Below the pieces are notes generated by a model. It saw only the letters and a program-made list of their open reading frames with translations, was not told the DNA's origin and ran no database searches. The position numbers and the translations under genes are program-made. Positions 21,059 through 48,845 of a stretch of DNA of 64,000 nt are shown piece after piece (position 1 is the stretch's first letter; every line of letters starts with the position of its first letter). Source of the stretch: a bacterium (GTDB lineage: Bacteria > Patescibacteriota > Minisyncoccia > Moranbacterales > UBA1568); NCBI GenBank assembly GCA_021821305.1, contig JAKACP010000001.1, positions 196,934 through 260,933 on the forward strand. The letters run 5' to 3'.

Positions 21059-21511
21059 TCATCGTTCTCCATATATCTCGACGGCACAGGCCATGCGGAC
21101 ATATATCTGGTTTCCTTGTCTGAGCTCGAGGGAGTACGGATTGCTGAGGAGCTGGGGGTGTTCGCCTTGACGCCGTGAAGTGCCGAGGAGGTTCCCGTCG
21201 CCGCGTATTTCTCCTACCGTGTATACGCGTACCGGACCCGGTCCGTCATGGAACATGCGCCAGTAGTCGCCGACATTCCGGTCGTCCCACGCGGATCGCC
21301 CGGTTTCGTTGCCGCAGATGCGGAGCGCATCGAAGATCCGATGGAAGCACGTTTCGAGCAGTTCTCGCGGCGGGCACAGGTGCGGGTTGTCCCGGAACAC
21401 CTTGAGTCTCCGGTAGTCCCTCTCGCTCAACTTCCTTTCCATGAACAGTTTGTCCGCGGCGGGCCAGGCATAGCGGAAAAACAGTTGCTCCGGGGTGAGG
21501 ATTCCCATCAT
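21059..21511 (-). CDS. Hypothetical protein
   Basis: ORF with a GGAAGGAG RBS before MMGILTPEQ. Divergent from nrdD. No family recognised. Confidence 0.4.
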   Translation of the reverse strand: MMGILTPEQLFFRYAWPAADKLFMERKLSERDYRRLKVFRDNPHLCPPRELLETCFHRIFDALRICGNETGRSAWDDRNVGDYWRMFHDGPGPVRVYTVGEIRGDGNLLGTSRRQGEHPQLLSNPYSLELRQGNQIYVRMACAVEIYGER

Positions 21512-21716
21512 GTTCTCCTTCCTTTTCAATGAACGAAGTGGCATGCTAGCACGGACAACGGCGGGAATCAATGCCATGGACGGATTCCGGAGGGACGGAG
21601 GGGTGAAAAGAGAAAGATCTCCTCGGATAAGCGATACTTGCCAGATTCTGTTCTTGTGGTATACTTATCACGGAAACCACAACATGTAGTGTAATAAATA
21701 GTTTTAAATAAAAAAT

Positions 21717-23843
21717 ATGTCGAATCCGAAGAAACAGGGGAAGAGGAGTCGCATCCCCGAGAAAGTCCCGGGTTCGACCCGCACGAAGGAAGCGAAGAAG
21801 CCTCCGGTGTCGCCGTTCCGATACATCGTGAAGCGCGGCGGGCGAAAGGTACGGTTCGACGGGAAGAAGATCGCCGTCGCGGTCGGGAAGGCGTTCGCCG
21901 CGACCGGCGAGGGGGGCGAGGCGGAGGCGAAGCGCGTGGCCGCGAAGGTGGTGAGCCTCCTCCGGAAGGACATCGGCAGGGACGGCATACCGACGGTGGA
22001 GGGCGTACAGGACATGGTGGAACGGGTGCTCATGATCCTCGACTTCGAGGAGACGGCCAAGTCTTACATACTTTACCGTGAGGAGCACGCCCGGCTCCGC
22101 GAGATGGAGAAGGCGCTCGAGCTCTCCTCGGATCTCGTCGACCGGTACCTCCGCGAGCTCGATTGGCGGGTCCGGGAGAACGCGAACATGTCCTATTCCC
22201 TCCAGGGGCTCAACAATTACATCTCCTCGATCGTCAGCTCGAAGTACTGGATGAACAAGGTGTATCCGCGCGAGATACGCGACGCGCACGAGGGCGGCGA
22301 CCTACATCTCCACGATCTCCAGCTCGTCTCCGCGTACTGCTGCGGCTGGGATCTCCAGGACCTCATACGGCGCGGCTTTACCGGTGTTCCCGGGAAAGTG
22401 TCGTCGAGGCCGGCCAAGCACCTCTCGGTCATTCTGGGGCAGATGGTCAATTTCATCTATACGCTCCAAGGCGAGGTCGCCGGCGCGCAGGCGTTCTCGA
22501 ATTTCGATACGCTGCTCGCCCCCTTCGTCCGACGCGACCGACTCTCGTACGCACAGGTCAAACAGGAGATCCAGTCCTTCGTCTTCAACATGAACATCTC
22601 GACGCGGGTCGGATTCCAGACCCCGTTCTCGAACATCACGCTCGATATCACGTGTCCCAAGGCGCTCGCCAAGGAAGCGGTCGTCATGGGTGGCGAGCCG
22701 CAGAACGAGACCTACGGCGAATTCCAGGAAGAGATGGACATGATCAACCGCGCATTCGCCGAGGTGATGATGGAGGGGGATTCCGAGGGGCGCGTCTTCA
22801 CGTTCCCCATCCCGACCTACAACATCGGCAAGGACTTCGACTGGGACGACCCGCGGTACCTTCCCATCTGGGAGATGACCGCCAAATACGGCATCCCGTA
22901 TTTCGCGAACTTCGTGAATTCCGACATGGATCCGGAGGACGCGCGGAGCATGTGCTGTCGGCTCCGGCTCGACAACCGCGAGCTCCACAAGCGCGGTGGC
23001 GGACTCTTCGGCGCGGCTCCGCTCACCGGTTCGATCGGGGTCGTGACGATCAATCTCCCGCGTCTCGGCCGTACGGCGGAAAGCGAGAAGGAGTTCTTCG
23101 CCAAGCTCGATACGCTCATGGATATCGCCCAAGAAAGCCTCGAAATCAAGCGGAAACTGGTCGAGAAGCTCACCGATCAGGGATTGTATCCCTATACCAG
23201 GTTCTATCTCGCGCCGATCAAGGCCCGCCGGGGGGAATACTGGTCGAACCATTTCTCGACCATCGGCTTGGTCGGCATGAACGAGGCGGCGCAGAACCTT
23301 CTCGGGACCGACATCACGACCGCGAAGGGACAGCGGTTCGCCGGCAAGGTGCTGACCCACATGCGCAAGCGCATCATCGGGTATCAGAAGGCGACGGGCA
23401 ATCTCTACAATCTCGAAGCGACACCGGCGGAGGGGACATCATATCGGCTGGCACAGCTCGACCAGGCGAGGTACAAGGATATCGTCTTCGCGAACGCCGA
23501 GGCGGTGCGGGAGACGGGAGCGGCTCCCTACTACACCAATTCCTCGCACATCCCGGTCGGCCACACGGATGACATCTTCGAGGCGCTCCGCCTCCAAGAC
23601 GACCTCCAGACCAAATATACCGGCGGGACGGTGCTGCACGGCTTTCTCGGGGAGAGAATGTGGGATGCGGAGGCGACCCGGAACCTGGTCCGGAAGATCG
23701 CGGAGAACTATCGGCTCCCGTATTTCACCCTGACGCCGACTTTTTCCGTCTGCCCCGCGCACGGCTATGTCGCCGGCGAACACCATACCTGCCCCCGCTG
23801 TGTCGCGGAGCCGACACAACAAAAATATTCGACCATCGGATGA
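21717..23843 (+). CDS. nrdD: Anaerobic ribonucleoside-triphosphate reductase, main body (ATP-cone + barrel; glycyl-radical domain missing)
   Basis: N-terminal ATP-cone (KVRFDGKKIAVAV) and a class III RNR core. The ORF ends in a partial Zn ribbon (CPAHG...CPRC) with no RVxGY glycyl-radical motif. Confidence 0.85.
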   Translation: MSNPKKQGKRSRIPEKVPGSTRTKEAKKPPVSPFRYIVKRGGRKVRFDGKKIAVAVGKAFAATGEGGEAEAKRVAAKVVSLLRKDIGRDGIPTVEGVQDMVERVLMILDFEETAKSYILYREEHARLREMEKALELSSDLVDRYLRELDWRVRENANMSYSLQGLNNYISSIVSSKYWMNKVYPREIRDAHEGGDLHLHDLQLVSAYCCGWDLQDLIRRGFTGVPGKVSSRPAKHLSVILGQMVNFIYTLQGEVAGAQAFSNFDTLLAPFVRRDRLSYAQVKQEIQSFVFNMNISTRVGFQTPFSNITLDITCPKALAKEAVVMGGEPQNETYGEFQEEMDMINRAFAEVMMEGDSEGRVFTFPIPTYNIGKDFDWDDPRYLPIWEMTAKYGIPYFANFVNSDMDPEDARSMCCRLRLDNRELHKRGGGLFGAAPLTGSIGVVTINLPRLGRTAESEKEFFAKLDTLMDIAQESLEIKRKLVEKLTDQGLYPYTRFYLAPIKARRGEYWSNHFSTIGLVGMNEAAQNLLGTDITTAKGQRFAGKVLTHMRKRIIGYQKATGNLYNLEATPAEGTSYRLAQLDQARYKDIVFANAEAVRETGAAPYYTNSSHIPVGHTDDIFEALRLQDDLQTKYTGGTVLHGFLGERMWDAEATRNLVRKIAENYRLPYFTLTPTFSVCPAHGYVAGEHHTCPRCVAEPTQQKYSTIG

Positions 23844-23854
23844 GGAATATTTTT

Positions 23855-23992
23855 GAAAGCACAGGTCACAGAACACAAAACGCCAAACAAGACACAAAAT
23901 ATGAAATACAAACATGAAACCAAACATCCGCTTGTGCTTTGAGAATTGTGTTTTGTTTGGATTTTTGTGCTTTCGAACTTTGTGTTTTTAGC
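23855..23992. repeat. Family-2 AT-rich A/C-rich palindromic element, copy D, between the nrdD body and the glycyl-radical ORF
   Basis: Arms cacaaaacgccaaacaagacacaaaat / attgtgttttgtttggatttttgtg. Similar to copies at 45301 and 48456. Confidence 0.6.
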
Positions 23993-24021
23993 AAAAATAA
24001 GTAATACGTAACAATAAAAGT

Positions 24022-24270
24022 ATGCGGTGCCATGATTGCGGAAAGGAGCTCGTGAAGGGGGCGGAGTACATGCCGTATCGGGTCGGAGATAGCGGGTTCG
24101 CCAAGTGTCGGGCGTGCCACGAGGCGGATCCGGTGCTCCGCGGCTTCCAGGAGGCCGAGGTCTACTCGCGCGTCGTCGGCTATATCCGCCCGGTCAGACA
24201 GTGGAACAAGGGCAAGCAGGCGGAGTTCGGCGACCGGAAGGAATATGTGGCGGAAGGTCGCGCGTGCTAG
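24022..24270 (+). CDS. Stand-alone NrdD C-terminal glycyl-radical domain (Zn ribbon + RVVGY...WNKGKQAEFGDR)
   Basis: 82-aa ORF with CxxC...CxxC followed by the class III RNR glycyl-radical motif SRVVGYIRPVRQWNKGKQAEF. Confidence 0.6.
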   Translation: MRCHDCGKELVKGAEYMPYRVGDSGFAKCRACHEADPVLRGFQEAEVYSRVVGYIRPVRQWNKGKQAEFGDRKEYVAEGRAC

Positions 24271-24274
24271 ATAC

Positions 24275-24445
24275 GCCCGCTCAACCCGGATTCCTTTCGT
24301 TCCCGACCGCATCCTCGCCGCCCGGTTTCTTCTTTTCAAAAATTTCCCTCAATCGACGGCATCTCGAGGAAATTTTTGAAGAAGAAACGGGCTTACTCGA
24401 GCAATATGCGGTTCCCGGCAAACGAAAGGAATCCGGGTTGAGCGG
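24275..24445. repeat. ~170-bp near-perfect palindrome (nested inverted repeats) upstream of nrdG
   Basis: acgcccgctcaacccggattcctttcgtt ... aacgaaaggaatccgggttgagcgggct. An inner pair ttcttttcaaaaatttcc / ggaaatttttgaagaagaa is nested inside. Confidence 0.7.
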
Positions 24446-24474
24446 GCTCAATTCCTTCTCCGTGACTCATCCGT

Positions 24475-25176
24475 ATGCTCGTCGGCGGTTTCCAAAAATT
24501 GACGCTCATCGATTATCCGGGAAAGGTCGCGACCACCGTCTTTACGGTCGGGTGCAATTTCCGGTGTCCGTTCTGCCATAATCCGGAGCTCATCGACTTC
24601 CCGAAAGGCGAACTGCCGACGTATCGGAAGAACGAGGAAGCATTCTTCGATTTCCTCGAAAAGAGGAGGGGTCTCCTCGACGGGGTATGCGTGACGGGCG
24701 GCGAACCGACGGTCCAGCCGGACCTCCTGGAATTCCTGGAAAAGGTGAAGAATATGGGGTTTCTCGTGAAACTCGATACGAACGGGAGCCGTCCGGAGAT
24801 CGTCGCGGAAGTGATCGGGCGAGGCCTCGCCGATTTCTTCGCGATGGACATCAAGAACCGGATGGGGCGCTACGGCGAGACATCGGGCTCGGACGTGTCG
24901 GAGGAACGGATCCGGGAAAGCATCCGGCGGATCCGGGAAAGCGGAACGCCGTACGAGTTCCGGACGACGGTCGTGCCGGGTCTCCACGACGAGAGCGATT
25001 TCGACGGCATCGCGGAGCTGATCGACGGGGCGCCGACGTATTATCTGCAGGAGTTCCGCGATTTCCGTATCCTCTCGCCGGGGCTCCGTGACCGCGCGAA
25101 GGGAAAGACGATCGATCTCGACGCGATAGCGGTGAGGCTCGCTCCGCGTTTCGGGAAGGTGGGCGTCCGCCGGTGA
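24475..25176 (+). CDS. nrdG: Anaerobic ribonucleotide reductase activating protein (radical SAM)
   Basis: CNFRCPFCHN radical-SAM cysteine motif, adjacent to nrdD. Confidence 0.85.
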   Translation: MLVGGFQKLTLIDYPGKVATTVFTVGCNFRCPFCHNPELIDFPKGELPTYRKNEEAFFDFLEKRRGLLDGVCVTGGEPTVQPDLLEFLEKVKNMGFLVKLDTNGSRPEIVAEVIGRGLADFFAMDIKNRMGRYGETSGSDVSEERIRESIRRIRESGTPYEFRTTVVPGLHDESDFDGIAELIDGAPTYYLQEFRDFRILSPGLRDRAKGKTIDLDAIAVRLAPRFGKVGVRR

Positions 25177-25679
25177 GGTCTTTGTCAGGGGGAAAACGAA
25201 AATATCCGGAAAGCGAAATCCCGTCTTCCTGACCGAGGACGCTCGCGGTCGCCGGAATTTCCTTCCCGGATATTTTCGTGCGATACGTCGCAAAGTAAAA
25301 CCGCCCCCGTTCAGTGTGGGCGGTTCGTGTTTTCGGTCTGCGGGGTCTCTTATTATAAGAGACCCATGTTTCCGAAGAGCGTCAACGTGACGACCGGCAT
25401 GAGGGCGAGAAGAAAGGCGAATGCCATCTCATCGTTCTCCGCCGCTTTCTTGCAATCGGTGCAAGAATGCTCCTGCGCTTCCGACGTCCGTCCTGAGACT
25501 TCGTCGGCGCTGACCATGGGCCTTTCAGCTTCCATAGTTTTTTCTTACTGTTTATGTCGTCGAAAAGAAAAAACGGGAATCCTCGCTTTGAGGGCACCCG
25601 TTTCTCACTTCAACATATCCATTATACATCAAAAAAACGGGAAAGTCAAGGCGGAGCGGCATCGATATGTAAAGTATGA

Positions 25680-26369: not shown

Positions 26370-27293
26370 ATGCAAAACGATATGATGCAGGGGTCCGGTG
26401 CGCCGATGCCGGGGAAGTCATCGCTTCCGCTGGTGATCGGTACGCTCGTCGCGGTCGTCGTCGTTGGGGCGTTCTACTTCGTGACGCGAAGCGATGAGAA
26501 GATGGAGGGCGATGCGATGATGGAGGCATCGAAGGACGATGCGATGATGACGGAGGAGAAAGACGAGAAGATGGAGGGCGAGGCAATGATGGAGAAGCGG
26601 GAAGTCACCGTGACGCTCGGCGCGCAGAACGCGTCCGGCCAGGAGGGAAAGGCGACGCTCGTCGAAACGGACGGGAAGACCAAGGTGACGATCGCTATCG
26701 GATCGGGTACGGCGGGAATCGCTCAGCCGGCCCATATCCATGTCGGTTCGTGCCCCGCTCCCGGAGCGGTGAAGTATCCGCTCACGAACGTCGTCGACGG
26801 CCGGTCGGAGACCGTGCTCGACGTGTCCTTGGAGACGCTCACCAAGGAACTGCCGCTTGCGATCAACGTGCACAAGTCGAAGGATGACGCGAAGACCTAC
26901 GTCTCATGCGGCGATATCACGGCCGCCGCGATGAGCGGAGAGGCGATGATGGAGAAAAAAACGGATGGGGCCATGATGACAAGCGCGGGATCATACGAGA
27001 CGTATGAGGCATCCAAGCTCGCGATGGCCAAGGAGGGGAAGGTCGTGTTGTTCTTCCGCGCCTCATGGTGCCCGACCTGTCGCGCGCTCGACGCGTCGAT
27101 ACGGAAGGAAGCCTCGGCGATCCCCGGGAACCTGACCATCCTTGACGTGGATTATGATACCTACAAGGATCTCAAGGCGAAGTACGGCGTGACCACGCAG
27201 CACACGCTGGTGCAGGTGGACGCCGACGGGAGGGAGATCACGAAATGGGTCGGCAGCGAGAATCTCGCGGAACTCGTGGCGAAACTGAAGTAG
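26370..27293 (+). CDS. Membrane-anchored Met/His-rich putative copper-binding domain fused to a thioredoxin
   Basis: Met-rich repeats (EGDAMMEASKDDAMMTEEKDEKMEGEAMMEK), AHIHVGSC, and a C-terminal WCPTC thioredoxin motif. Confidence 0.55.
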   Translation: MQNDMMQGSGAPMPGKSSLPLVIGTLVAVVVVGAFYFVTRSDEKMEGDAMMEASKDDAMMTEEKDEKMEGEAMMEKREVTVTLGAQNASGQEGKATLVETDGKTKVTIAIGSGTAGIAQPAHIHVGSCPAPGAVKYPLTNVVDGRSETVLDVSLETLTKELPLAINVHKSKDDAKTYVSCGDITAAAMSGEAMMEKKTDGAMMTSAGSYETYEASKLAMAKEGKVVLFFRASWCPTCRALDASIRKEASAIPGNLTILDVDYDTYKDLKAKYGVTTQHTLVQVDADGREITKWVGSENLAELVAKLK

Positions 27294-27357
27294 ATCGCGT
27301 ATCCGCACTCCTCTCCGGCGACATTCCGGAGAGGTCGCGAATCCGTGATATCACCAT

Positions 27358-29109
27358 ATGCTCACCTTGTTGCTCTTCGCCTTTCTTTCGGGGCTCGTGA
27401 CGATAGCGGCTCCGTGCATCTGGCCGATCCTGCCGATCATCCTCTCTTCGGCGGCGACCGGCGGGAAACGGCGTCCGCTCGGGATCGTGACCGGGTTGGT
27501 CGCGAGTTTCACGGTGGCCACGCTCGCGCTCTCGTCCCTCGTCCGCGCGCTCGGCTTTTCTCCGGACGGCCTCCGACTGTTTTCCGTCGTCGTGATCGCG
27601 CTCCTCGGCGTGTCGCTCCTCGTCCCGGCAGTCGGCACGAGACTCGAGGGTTTCGTCAGCCGCCTCCTGGGGCGTTTCGGGAAGTCCCGGGCCGAGGGAG
27701 CCGGATTCGGCTCCGGATTCCTGACGGGCGCCGCGCTCGGCATCGTCTGGGCTCCCTGTGCCGGGCCGATACTCGCCGCCGTGGCCACGCTCGCCGCGAC
27801 CCGGTCGGTTTCGATCGAAGCGGTGCTGGTGACGCTCGCGTTCGGCGTCGGCATCGGCATACCGCTCTTCCTGTTCGCGATATTCGGACAGAGGCTGTTC
27901 TCGGCCAACCGGTTCCTCCGGGCGTATACGGGACGCATCCAGCAGGTATTCGGCGTCATCATGATACTCGCGGCGTTCGCGATCTATACCGGATATGACA
28001 AGACGCTCCAGTCGAAGCTTCTCGATCTCTTTCCGAACTATGGAAGCTTCCTCAACCGGTTCGAGGACCGGCCGGAAGTCGAGAAAGCGCTCGATGACTT
28101 GCGGAAAGATTCGAGCGGTGGCCTGTCGGGCGATAGGACGGAATCGAAAGCGTCCGAATCGGGACTACCCGTGCTCGGAACGGCACCTGAATTCCGCGGA
28201 ATCTCGAATTGGCTCAATACCGACGGAAAGCCGCTCGCAATGGCGGACCTGCGGGGGAAGGTGGTGCTCGTCGATTTCTGGACGTACAGCTGTATCAACT
28301 GCATCCGGACGCTTCCGTATGTGACTGGATGGTATAAGAAATATAAAGATGACGGATTGGTTGTCGTCGGTGTGCATACGCCGGAATTCGCTTTCGAACA
28401 CAAGACGAAGAACGTGGCGGATGCGATGCGTCGGTATGGTATCGAGTACCCGGTAGCCCAGGACAATGACTATGGGACGTGGCAGGCCTATTCGAACCGC
28501 TACTGGCCGGCGCACTATCTCATCGACGCGGAAGGCCGGGTGCGCTATACGCACTTCGGCGAAGGGAAATACGACGAAACGGAAAAGAATATCCAGAAGC
28601 TCCTCGAGGAAGCCGGGATGATGGCGGAGAAACAAGAAGTGCTTTCGATAACAGGGGAAGGGACGACGCGTGGTCAGACGCCCGAAACCTATCTCGGGCT
28701 CGCCCGCATGGATCGGTTCGCCTCTCCCGAGAGAGCGGAACCGCTGTCCCGGACGTATTCGATCCCGGAGACGATACGGCTCCATTCGTTCGCCTACGGC
28801 GGGGAATGGAATCTCGATGCCGAACGGGCGATGACGGGAACCGGCTCGTCGCTCGCGCTCCGTTTCCGGGGGAACAAGGTGTTCCTCGTGCTCGCGCCGC
28901 CTCCCGGTTCGATCGGGACGGTACGGGTGCTCCTCGATGGAGCGACGGTCACGGGCGATGCGGGCGCGGATGTCGTCGACGGCACGGTGACGGTCGATTC
29001 CGATCGGCTCTACGAGCTCATCGATCTTCATGGAAGGGACGGCGAGCATACGCTCCGCCTCGAGTTCGACACCCCGGGGACCGCCGCATACGCCTTCACG
29101 TTCGGATAG
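27358..29109 (+). CDS. CcdA/DsbD-family thiol:disulfide membrane transporter fused to a TlpA-like thioredoxin and a C-terminal domain
   Basis: TM Cys motifs (APCIWP, WAPCAGP) and a WTYSCINCIRT thioredoxin-like motif. Confidence 0.7.
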   Translation: MLTLLLFAFLSGLVTIAAPCIWPILPIILSSAATGGKRRPLGIVTGLVASFTVATLALSSLVRALGFSPDGLRLFSVVVIALLGVSLLVPAVGTRLEGFVSRLLGRFGKSRAEGAGFGSGFLTGAALGIVWAPCAGPILAAVATLAATRSVSIEAVLVTLAFGVGIGIPLFLFAIFGQRLFSANRFLRAYTGRIQQVFGVIMILAAFAIYTGYDKTLQSKLLDLFPNYGSFLNRFEDRPEVEKALDDLRKDSSGGLSGDRTESKASESGLPVLGTAPEFRGISNWLNTDGKPLAMADLRGKVVLVDFWTYSCINCIRTLPYVTGWYKKYKDDGLVVVGVHTPEFAFEHKTKNVADAMRRYGIEYPVAQDNDYGTWQAYSNRYWPAHYLIDAEGRVRYTHFGEGKYDETEKNIQKLLEEAGMMAEKQEVLSITGEGTTRGQTPETYLGLARMDRFASPERAEPLSRTYSIPETIRLHSFAYGGEWNLDAERAMTGTGSSLALRFRGNKVFLVLAPPPGSIGTVRVLLDGATVTGDAGADVVDGTVTVDSDRLYELIDLHGRDGEHTLRLEFDTPGTAAYAFTFG

Positions 29110-45093: not shown

Positions 45094-45300
45094 ATGGTAG
45101 AAAAAAAGCAATCATTGTCGGAATCGATACGGAAACTCGAAGGCATCGTGGAATGGTTCGAGGGTCAGGAGGAAATCGACGTCGAAAAGGGTCTCGAGAA
45201 ATTCAAGGAGGGCGCATCGCTCGTGAAGTCCTCGCGTGCGCGCCTCAAGGAAATCGAGAACGAGTTCCGGGAAGTGGAGAAGACGCTCGACGAAGCATAG
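45094..45300 (+). CDS. xseB: Exodeoxyribonuclease VII small subunit
   Basis: 68-aa helical protein (SLSESIRKLEGIVEWFE) immediately after xseA. Confidence 0.8.
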   Translation: MVEKKQSLSESIRKLEGIVEWFEGQEEIDVEKGLEKFKEGASLVKSSRARLKEIENEFREVEKTLDEA

Positions 45301-45446
45301 CTTCGAAAACACGGTTTTCAAAACACAAAAAGCCAAACAAAACACGAAGCAAATACTGAAAGCACAAACCTCGCAATCTCGAAGTTTGTGCTTTGTATTT
45401 TGTGATTTGTTTGGACTTTGTGCTCTGTGCTTTGTGTTTTTTTGAT
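45301..45446. repeat. Family-2 AT-rich A/C-rich palindromic element, copy E
   Basis: Arms caaaacacaaaaagccaaacaaaacacgaagc / gtttgtgctttgtattttgtgatttgtttggactttgtgct. It starts at the xseB stop codon. Confidence 0.6.
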
Positions 45447-45484
45447 GGTATACTGGAAGAGAAAATACACACAAACGATACCGT

Positions 45485-48143: not shown

Positions 48144-48455
48144 CTACTCGAATCCCAACTGCGCCTTGGCGGCCTCGGTCATCTTGGATGGGTCCCACGG
48201 GGGATCGAAGGTGATCTCGGTCTTCACGTCCTCGATCTCGGGGATGGCCATGAGCGCCTCTTCGATCTGGGCTTCGATCACCCCGAAGAGCGGACAGCCC
48301 ATGGTGGTGAGCGTCATCGTGACCTTGGCGCGGCCGGACTTGGTCACGGAGACGCCGTAGACGAGGCCGAGATCCACGATCGAGATGCCGAGCTCGGGAT
48401 CGAGCACGGTTTTCAGTGCCGTTTCTATTTTCGTTTGGAGCTTTTGATCCTTCAT
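48144..48455 (-). CDS. DUF59/MIP18-family Fe-S assembly protein (SufT-like)
   Basis: ALKTVLDPELGISIVDLGLVY...TTMGCPL pattern. Confidence 0.7.
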   Translation of the reverse strand: MKDQKLQTKIETALKTVLDPELGISIVDLGLVYGVSVTKSGRAKVTMTLTTMGCPLFGVIEAQIEEALMAIPEIEDVKTEITFDPPWDPSKMTEAAKAQLGFE

Positions 48456-48575
48456 AAAAGAAAAACACAAATTTCAAAAAACAAAAACCAAACAAAGCAC
48501 AAATCCTAAAACACAAGCGGTTTGTAGACTGTGTTTTGTTTGGCTTTTTGTGTACCGTGTTTTGTGCTTTTGAAA
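48456..48575. repeat. Family-2 AT-rich A/C-rich palindromic element, copy F
   Basis: Arms aaacacaaatttcaaaaaacaaaaaccaaacaaagcac / gtgttttgtttggctttttgtgtaccgtgttttgtgc. It fits exactly between the ferredoxin stop and the DUF59 start. Confidence 0.6.
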
Positions 48576-48845
48576 TTACTCGGGGAATACCTGCTTTCCG
48601 TCCTTGTCCTTGATGATGATCGCGGCGACGGGGCAGGATCGGGCGGCATTGAGGATGGTGTCGGTCGAATCCTCGTCGGCCGTCGCGAGGACGGTCGCCT
48701 TGCCCTCGTCGTCGAGCCCGAACGTCTTGGGAGCCATCGCGGTGCAGGGCGCCGCGCCGATGCAGACATTGCGGTCGACTTCCACCGTCCAGCCGTTGGC
48801 GAGAGTGACCGGTCCGCTCGGTTTCGATTCGTCTTTGAGAGCCAT
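48576..48845 (-). CDS. Single-cluster 4Fe-4S ferredoxin
   Basis: CIGAAPC...C pattern; 89 aa. Confidence 0.7.
   Translation of the reverse strand: MALKDESKPSGPVTLANGWTVEVDRNVCIGAAPCTAMAPKTFGLDDEGKATVLATADEDSTDTILNAARSCPVAAIIIKDKDGKQVFPE

Follow-up and report, generated by a model that had tools for sequence, protein, structure and literature searches.

Organization of the nrd locus

The class III ribonucleotide reductase (RNR) genes described here lie in a 64-kb stretch of DNA from a bacterium of the Moranbacterales (contig JAKACP010000001.1), and this whole stretch is called the window below. The gene nrdD was present in the window as two consecutive open reading frames (ORFs), a large one (ORF1) without the glycyl-radical loop of the enzyme and a small one (ORF2) with it, which were followed by nrdG, the gene of the activase. 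The features of the locus are as follows.

21717-23843, plus strand: nrdD large subunit (ORF1), 708 aa, with ATP-cone, catalytic barrel and zinc ribbon and without the glycyl-radical loop
23751-23801, plus strand: zinc ribbon of ORF1 itself, C679-P-A-H682 ... C692-P-R-C695 (C-x2-H...C-x2-C)
23802-23840, plus strand: vestigial tail of ORF1, VAEPTQQKYSTIG, a degenerate remnant of EQKTEVYSRVVG that stops near the expected position of the radical glycine
23844-24021, no strand: ORF1-ORF2 spacer, 178 bp, AT-rich, holding a species-specific palindromic repeat
24022-24270, plus strand: putative small radical subunit (ORF2), 82 aa, with its own ATG, a zinc ribbon, a glycyl-radical hairpin and a C-terminal Cys
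24475-25176, plus strand: nrdG, activase of the radical S-adenosylmethionine (SAM) type, 233 aa

ORF1 exceeded the cut-offs of both models of the class III RNR barrel. It covered profile positions 1-530 of 562 of Pfam NRDD (PF13597) with 611 bits (cut-off 26) and model positions 4-650 of 684 of NCBIfam NF006126 with 1030 bits (cut-off 548), and it also matched the Pfam ATP-cone. Solved NrdD structures could be aligned with ORF1 as far as the second CxxC of its ribbon (up to residue 704 of 743 with 8p23), and in the alignment with 4coi the residues 96-610 of 651 were covered. The finger-loop motif MCCR at residues 412-415 of ORF1 aligned with MGCR of the P. copri NrdD; the thiyl-radical role of the finger-loop Cys of NrdD is known from the literature. 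The ribbon motif TPTFSxCPxHGY...CPxC was kept in all truncated and full-length NrdD relatives.

The C-terminus of ORF1 is CPAHGYVAGEHHTCPRCVAEPTQQKYSTIG, directly before the stop codon (in a longer stretch, TPTFSVCPAHGYVAGEHHTCPRCVAEPTQQKYSTIG). The glycyl-radical motif RVxGY was absent from this chain, which ends in KYSTIG, and was found on ORF2 instead (V51-V52-G53-Y54). Compared with EVYSRVVG, the tail KYSTIG represents a decayed first strand of the radical motif. In tblastn searches of contiguous relatives, residue 707 of ORF1 and residue 51 of ORF2 fell on the same codon and the matches overlapped, which places the end of ORF1 at about the position of the radical glycine. Together ORF1 and ORF2 spanned the whole NrdD model, with an overlap of 20 positions at the zinc ribbon that both of them matched (Pfam NRDD 510-530). 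The two pieces thus do not abut, as those of a gene split by an intron or a mobile element do, and owing to this overlap in homology they do not represent one gene cut in two.

ORF2 matched the last 53 positions of Pfam NRDD (510-562 of 562, E = 9e-13) and positions 644-682 of 684 of NCBIfam NF006126. Only NrdD models of Pfam and NCBIfam were matched, and Gly_radical, the Pfam domain of pyruvate formate-lyase (PFL), was not among them. The zinc ligands C3, C6, C29 and C32 (C3-H-D-C6 ... C29-R-A-C32; CHDC...CRAC) are followed by EVYSRVVGYIRPVRQWNKGKQAEFGDR. The radical stretch reads EVYSRVVG53YIRPVRQWNKGKQAEFGDR, with Gly53 (codon 24178-24180) as the predicted radical site. Relative to ORF1, the frame of ORF2 is +1, and a stop codon lies 7 codons before its ATG. 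In the AlphaFold2 (AF2) model of ORF2, with a mean predicted local distance difference test score (pLDDT) of 68 and values of 70-87 over residues 1-50, zinc-ribbon hairpins were followed by a β-hairpin composed of strands 42-49 and 54-60; Gly53 sits at the tip of this hairpin, the arrangement expected of a glycyl-radical loop. A sequence search of the PDB with ORF2 alone gave no NrdD match, and the family profile aligned only weakly with residues 612-643 of T. maritima NrdD, which belong to its radical loop (E = 0.22). The ORF at 24475-25176 was identified as the cognate radical SAM activase by TIGR02495 NrdG2 (205 bits, cut-off 131) as well as Pfam Radical_SAM and Fer4_12.

A first-pass annotation of the window had described a 708-aa NrdD frame without the glycyl-radical motif and, 178 bp further on, a separate 82-aa frame with its own start, a zinc ribbon and the radical loop, and both descriptions agree with the profile matches given above. 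It had not recorded that ORF1 keeps a complete zinc ribbon of its own and the degenerate remnant of the first strand.

The small protein as a gene family

Searches with ORF2 showed that it has many homologues of its own size. Among 5.8 billion proteins 537 homologues were found, and the best 120 of the 537 were all 80-113 aa long; the named sources among the best homologues were Moranbacteria, Parcubacteria, Pacebacteria and other Patescibacteria. When 1.84 billion cluster representatives were searched exhaustively with the profile, 3781 matched at E<=1e-3 and 420 at E<=1e-10; the 150 top-scoring ones were all 42-160 aa long. In an alignment of 28 homologues the residues C3, H4, C6, C29, C32, E46, Y48-P57 and Q60-N62 were invariant. 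By these sequence comparisons the small radical-domain protein is a real and ancient gene family, common in Patescibacteria, for which no dedicated family was found in NCBIfam and PHROGs. Like the autonomous GrcA/YfiD, ORF2 is a small free-standing protein with a glycyl-radical domain.

The radical region of the ORF2-type protein was 50% identical to that of the canonical NrdD C-terminus (E = 7e-21). A simple tandem duplication of the canonical C-terminus was rejected as the source of ORF2, since the zinc ribbon is differently spaced and could not be aligned in register.

A terminal Cys or Cys pair (ACxxC, CC) is typical of the small radical-domain proteins and is Cys82 in ORF2 (24265-24267). 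Such a C-terminus was observed in 35 of 50 small proteins (the window and loci L005-L054) and in 5 of 45 full-length NrdDs, and those full-length NrdDs that have a small partner carry Lys-rich C-terminal tails instead. The Cys tail resembles the redox-active Cys pairs at the C-termini of class I and II RNRs.

Other stand-alone proteins with the NrdD-type motif were observed as well. A second subfamily (P0147-P0227; L084-L088) consists of proteins of 110-136 aa with an N-terminal helix, an enlarged CHDC...KC..C ribbon and a GGAVY insert; one member, P0171, is found in a series of short ORFs of the same direction that includes glycosyltransferases and is possibly viral. On viral contigs of IMG/VR (L089-L168), the motif EVYSRVVGY..QWNKGK was located in an orphan frame of 43-153 aa at 61 of 80 loci (e.g. 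L128 3980-4117), and genes resembling nrdD or nrdG were absent from the surrounding 4 kb. The zinc ribbon is missing from many of the mini-proteins (e.g. the 45-aa MSKCKAPTEVYSRVVGFFRPIQQWNKGKQEEFRQRKEYKVDDKQP), several are conserved across different contigs, and PHROGs has no separate family for them. By analogy they may be phage-encoded spare radical domains for the host NrdD. When the phage mini-protein was sought in GenBank phages and E. coli genomes, two weak protein matches and no DNA matches were obtained. Taken together, free-standing NrdD-type radical proteins might form a widespread and so far undescribed class of radical carriers, with spares in Patescibacteria, the sole radical domain in several lineages and minis in phages, a proposal for which we see the chances as evenly balanced.

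The small gene beside full-length and truncated nrdD genes

One genome per GTDB species was scanned with the family alignment, and the 79 loci obtained were classified by script. At 22 of them a full-length nrdD was accompanied by the small gene, which lay 4-259 bp downstream and was followed by nrdG. The NrdD of these loci has its own intact motif, EVYSRVVGYIRP..QWN.GK (...EVYSRVVGYIRPVxQWNKGKQAEF...). This arrangement was also found in a complete genome of a named strain, Minisyncoccus archaeiphilus PMX.108 (L038). A full-length partner of the kind that GrcA/YfiD has was therefore present at these 22 related loci; within the window there is none, ORF1 being truncated.

A truncated nrdD followed by the small gene and nrdG was found at 14 loci in addition to the window. 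Here the large chain is cut a few residues past the zinc ribbon, exactly or nearly where the radical glycine would be, and the tails look like a decayed first strand of the motif (EQSSTVYLKVVMAD and EQKTEVFLKVGEEEL are examples, as is EPTQQKYSTIG). The nearest relatives of the window, L005 and L006 (87% identity in ORF1), and two loci of the same clade, L018 and L019, all have the truncated nrdD and the small gene. The order nrdD-small gene-nrdG was kept in relatives. A contiguous nrdD without a small gene was found at 30 loci, including some Moranbacteria with about 73% identity to ORF1. The comparison with related nrdD loci that the first-pass annotation had proposed thus returned uninterrupted genes of two kinds as well as truncated ones. 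At three loci with a truncated nrdD (L007 3883/3884, L021 3967/3968 and L036 3949/3950) the small ORF is in frame with the large one, with a single stop between them, and this shared frame is probably due to chance, readthrough of the stop codon being the less likely explanation.

At the remaining 13 loci the small gene had no nrdD within 4 kb. A Fur-family gene lay directly upstream in 11 of these 13 and a gene of Fe/Mn superoxide dismutase directly downstream in 6. The four Fur-family genes tested scored best against PerR models, at values below the equivalog cut-offs. The resulting cluster of a PerR-like regulator, the small gene and, at 6 loci, the dismutase was observed in Paceibacteria-type genomes (L037, L039, L041-L044, L048, L049, L051, L052 and L054). 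One metagenome-assembled genome, RA.bin113, contained such a remote small gene (L048) together with a full-length nrdD-nrdG (L080).

Repeated loss of the radical domain and selection on the parts

In a neighbour-joining tree of the NrdD core, truncated genes appeared at several places among the genes that are full-length and accompanied by the small gene. At least five state changes were required in 100 of 100 bootstrap trees. The window formed a clade with L005, L018 and L019 (96% support), and the truncated L020 lay inside a clade of full-length genes with small partners (100% support). Judged from these trees, the loss of the motif from nrdD is polyphyletic and took place at least five independent times.

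All parts of the system are under strong purifying selection. The ratio of nonsynonymous to synonymous substitution (dN/dS) was 0.009-0.10 for the cores of truncated NrdDs and 0.016-0.034 for those of full-length ones at a dS of about 1-2, and 0.03-0.19 for the small genes (0.04-0.19 for ORF2), dS being often saturated in these comparisons.

The radical regions of the large and the small protein were more alike within a genome than between genomes, both in amino acid identity (0.88 against 0.80) and in identity at synonymous third positions (0.66 against 0.44). Such likeness points to gene conversion, or to both regions being fitted to one barrel and one activase. At L023, L024, L035 and L045 the third-position identity between the full-length nrdD and the adjacent small gene was about 0.9, a value that suggests recent gene conversion.

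A probable two-polypeptide class III RNR

Considering these results, we regard it as likely that the locus encodes a class III RNR of two polypeptides together with its activase, in which a GrcA-like radical domain has become an obligatory subunit. The 708-aa NrdD would supply the ATP-cone, a zinc ribbon and the barrel, in which the finger loop carries the Cys, and the 82-aa protein would supply a second zinc ribbon and the glycyl-radical hairpin with Gly53. NrdG would put the radical on Gly53 of the small protein, which would then bind the large subunit with its hairpin inside the barrel and generate the thiyl radical there, as the attached C-terminal domain of an ordinary NrdD does.

Oxygen cleaves glycyl radical enzymes such as NrdD and PFL at the radical glycine, and in PFL the lost domain is replaced by GrcA/YfiD. 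By analogy, the simplest reading of the small paralogue is that of a GrcA/YfiD-like spare part for an NrdD cleaved by oxygen. Since such a protein would complement an NrdD broken at the glycine, truncation of the gene at about the same site would be tolerated and could recur. The history would have started from a complete nrdD, continued with a complete nrdD and a small paralogue of its radical domain, the state still seen in many Patescibacteria, and ended with the repeated loss of the large chain's own domain, of which the lineage of the window would be one case. The palindromic element of the spacer would have arrived later, in an intergenic spacer that already existed.

Several points weigh against this interpretation. 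The anatomy of the locus, the distribution of the genes, the order of events and the purifying selection are shown by the sequences, but that the small protein receives the radical and acts in trans is inferred, and the spare-part role in genomes with both a full-length nrdD and the small gene is drawn from analogy and gene neighbourhood. The absence of a second complete nrdD or of another RNR holds for the 64-kb window. Most of the relatives are metagenome-assembled genomes, and the neighbour-joining trees are of one protein, so that horizontal transfer of nrdD could inflate the number of losses. Furthermore, the AF2 model of ORF2 alone is of moderate confidence, with the C-terminal 19 residues below 50, and fold searches with it returned generic zinc fingers only.

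Among the alternatives, ORF1 might be a decaying pseudogene and ORF2 a spare for a complete NrdD encoded elsewhere. Spare-like small genes do coexist with full-length nrdD in relatives, and the window is 64 kb of the genome. We nevertheless consider a pseudogene improbable, since the core of ORF1 evolves with a dN/dS of 0.07-0.10 relative to its relatives over a dS of about 1-2 and is as constrained as the full-length homologues. Its frame of 708 aa is intact with all motifs through the zinc ribbon, the truncation has been stably inherited in the clade of the window and in at least four others, the operon with nrdG has been kept, and no second nrdD or radical domain was found within the window.

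An equally doubtful alternative is that the small protein has a regulatory or decoy function, such as the titration of NrdG, or that it serves another partner enzyme and is not the catalytic carrier of the radical. Some of its properties would suit such a role, namely the non-canonical zinc ribbon with a longer spacer, the 7 extra residues before the motif, the distinctive Cys tail and the orphans on viral contigs without nrdD or nrdG nearby. On the other hand, a truncated yet strongly conserved NrdD would then have no radical source, the small protein has an invariant radical motif that matches NrdD specifically and not other glycyl radical enzymes, and the likeness of large and small radical regions within a genome is as expected for domains that fit the same barrel and activase.

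The spacer and its palindromic element

The spacer between ORF1 and ORF2 has a GC content of 31-36%, compared with about 60% in its flanks, and contains an imperfect palindrome that is related to two other sequences of the window.

arms 23874-23897 and 23946-23969, no strand: imperfect palindrome in the spacer, with a hairpin at about 23848-23999 (folding z-score -3.9)
about 45296-45447 and 48455-48590, no strand: related copies of the element, intergenic, between long ORFs

The arms of the element are conserved among the copies (CACAAAA.GCCAAACAA.ACAC and GTGTTTTGTTTGG.TTTTGTG) with a mean column identity of 73%. A scan of the spacer with Rfam found no intron or other RNA family, the best matches (E about 0.4) being chance-level ones to unrelated miRNA families, and a group I or II intron or another structured RNA in the gap was therefore rejected. 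The spacer contains no ORF and no endonuclease gene, and an intein or split intein was rejected in the absence of junction motifs in the sequence; the intervening DNA has none of the marks of an intron, an intein or a homing endonuclease. Three independent SRA assemblies, including one from a strain with 97.9% overall identity, have the 178-bp spacer without a single base difference, so the split is not an assembly error.

It is very improbable that the element was inserted into an intact nrdD and cut it into pieces that still work. The element does sit exactly between ORF1 and ORF2, and related copies occur elsewhere in the window. However, the closest relatives have the same type of truncated tail (CVAEPKQEKYAKIE and CVAEPSQEKYAKAG) and the small gene with short, unrelated spacers free of the element (71, 55, 53 and 136 bp in L005, L006, L018 and L019); ORF1 and ORF2 overlap in homology, with two zinc ribbons, and do not abut; and the small gene also occurs beside an intact nrdD, and alone, in many genomes. 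Because these relatives share the truncation but not the spacer, the element is, on this comparison of sequences, a passenger that landed late in a pre-existing spacer and not the cause of the split.

The joining of ORF1 and ORF2 by RNA splicing, by ribosomal bypass or frameshift or by protein splicing is hardly credible either: the gap has a strong hairpin, ORF1 ends in GGA-TGA with a GGA at codon 7 of ORF2, superficially like the bypassing of T4 gene 60, and three related loci share one frame across a single stop, but no intron family matches the gap, the spacers of relatives (4-259 bp) are mutually unrelated in sequence, ORF2 of the window is out of frame behind a stop, the small gene has its own conserved N-terminus and is also found far from any nrdD, there are no intein motifs (the end of ORF1 is not an N-intein, and ORF2 lacks an HN-Cys junction), and the fused product would have two zinc ribbons and a duplicated strand. 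Translational bypass or frameshift was rejected in particular, as the GGA-TGA...GGA pattern is not conserved in relatives and their frames and spacers vary.

The first-pass annotation was therefore right that a palindromic element occupies the gap and that the gap is not a group I intron, and the assembly error that it had allowed for did not materialize. Its proposal that insertion of the element caused the fission is contradicted by the element-free spacers of the nearest relatives. Its other proposal, a two-piece NrdD natural to the lineage with a GrcA/YfiD-like detachable domain, gained support in substance, although not as a simple fission, since the small gene predates the loss of the domain from the large one.

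Flanking sequences and neighbouring genes

Two further features were noted around the operon.

21638-21665, plus strand: sigma-70-like promoter match upstream of nrdD, TTGCCA-16-TATACT, with TG (match to the consensus only)
24275-24447, no strand: palindrome of 173 bp in the ORF2-nrdG spacer, with perfect 27-nt terminal arms and inner 13-nt arms

The promoter-like site was the only one in 21400-25400. Two imperfect palindromes (GTGGTATACTTATCAC and ACAACATGTAGTGT) lie at 21655-21695, between this site and the start of nrdD; by their resemblance they are candidate NrdR boxes. No other copy of the palindrome at 24275-24447 was present within the window. On the 3' side of nrdG, at 26370-29109 (gene calls of L002), genes with thioredoxin and DsbD/AhpC-TSA/Redoxin domains were observed, and in the related strain L001 CsoR-like and copper-ATPase genes are found in their place, so that the genes directly behind the nrd operon differ from strain to strain.

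Implications of a separate radical domain

A review from 2026 on glycyl radical enzymes states that formate lyases are the only members of the family with known spare parts and that it is undetermined whether other members have them. In the literature we found no description of a split NrdD or of a stand-alone NrdD radical domain. The locus and its relatives provide concrete candidates for the spare part of a class III RNR. The truncated nrdD genes are natural knock-outs, in which the loss of the domain combined with strong selection argues for the small protein acting in trans. If this is true, the enzyme would be the first natural glycyl radical enzyme with its radical site on a separate subunit, and the phage minis would presumably plug into the NrdD/NrdG of the host and sustain the synthesis of deoxynucleoside triphosphates during infection.

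The series from full-length nrdD through full-length nrdD with a spare to truncated nrdD with an obligatory subunit would illustrate how duplication and loss can bring about the fission of a gene. The system is also relevant to the oxygen tolerance of Patescibacteria and to their supply of nucleotides. A radical carrier of 9 kDa could also be a tractable model for recognition by the activase and for docking of the radical domain. In annotation, truncated nrdD genes and "NrdD" ORFs of about 85 aa are easily dismissed as fragments.

Comparison with known systems

The locus has the same domains in the same order, with an adjacent NrdG, as the canonical class III RNRs (NrdD/NrdG of T4, E. coli, T. 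maritima and P. copri). Unlike in canonical NrdD, a separate chain with a second zinc ribbon carries the radical loop, of which a degenerate remnant of the first strand is left at the end of the large chain.

RNR genes interrupted by other DNA are known from phages. The nrdA of Aeromonas phage Aeh1 is split by the homing endonuclease gene mobE, and the nrdD of T4 carries a group I intron. As in these, the RNR gene of the window consists of two consecutive ORFs with intervening DNA. Unlike these, the gap holds neither an endonuclease gene nor an intron RNA, the pieces overlap in homology, and the split is old, widespread and independent of the content of the spacer.

In the split class II RNR NrdJa/NrdJb, the C-terminal zinc-finger module is a second polypeptide (PMC9669993). 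An RNR with a module containing a zinc finger on a second chain is common to both systems. However, NrdJa/NrdJb belongs to another class with adenosylcobalamin as the radical source, NrdJb carries a redox Cys pair and not the radical site, and there is no evidence that this split originated through a spare-part intermediate.

The closest likeness in form is to the small free-standing homologues of the C-terminal domain of a glycyl radical enzyme. GrcA/YfiD of E. coli and Y06I of phage T4 are autonomous glycyl-radical spare parts of PFL. ORF2 is such a homologue too, and like GrcA/YfiD its family coexists with the full-length enzyme in many relatives and has remote copies in an oxidative-stress gene context. 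Unlike GrcA/YfiD, ORF2 is homologous to NrdD (Pfam NRDD) and not to PFL, it carries a zinc ribbon, and its gene usually lies inside the nrdD-nrdG operon. In the window and in at least four other clades, moreover, the partner has lost its own domain, which would make the small protein obligatory rather than a spare. By analogy, ORF2 would work as GrcA does without being a member of the GrcA family.

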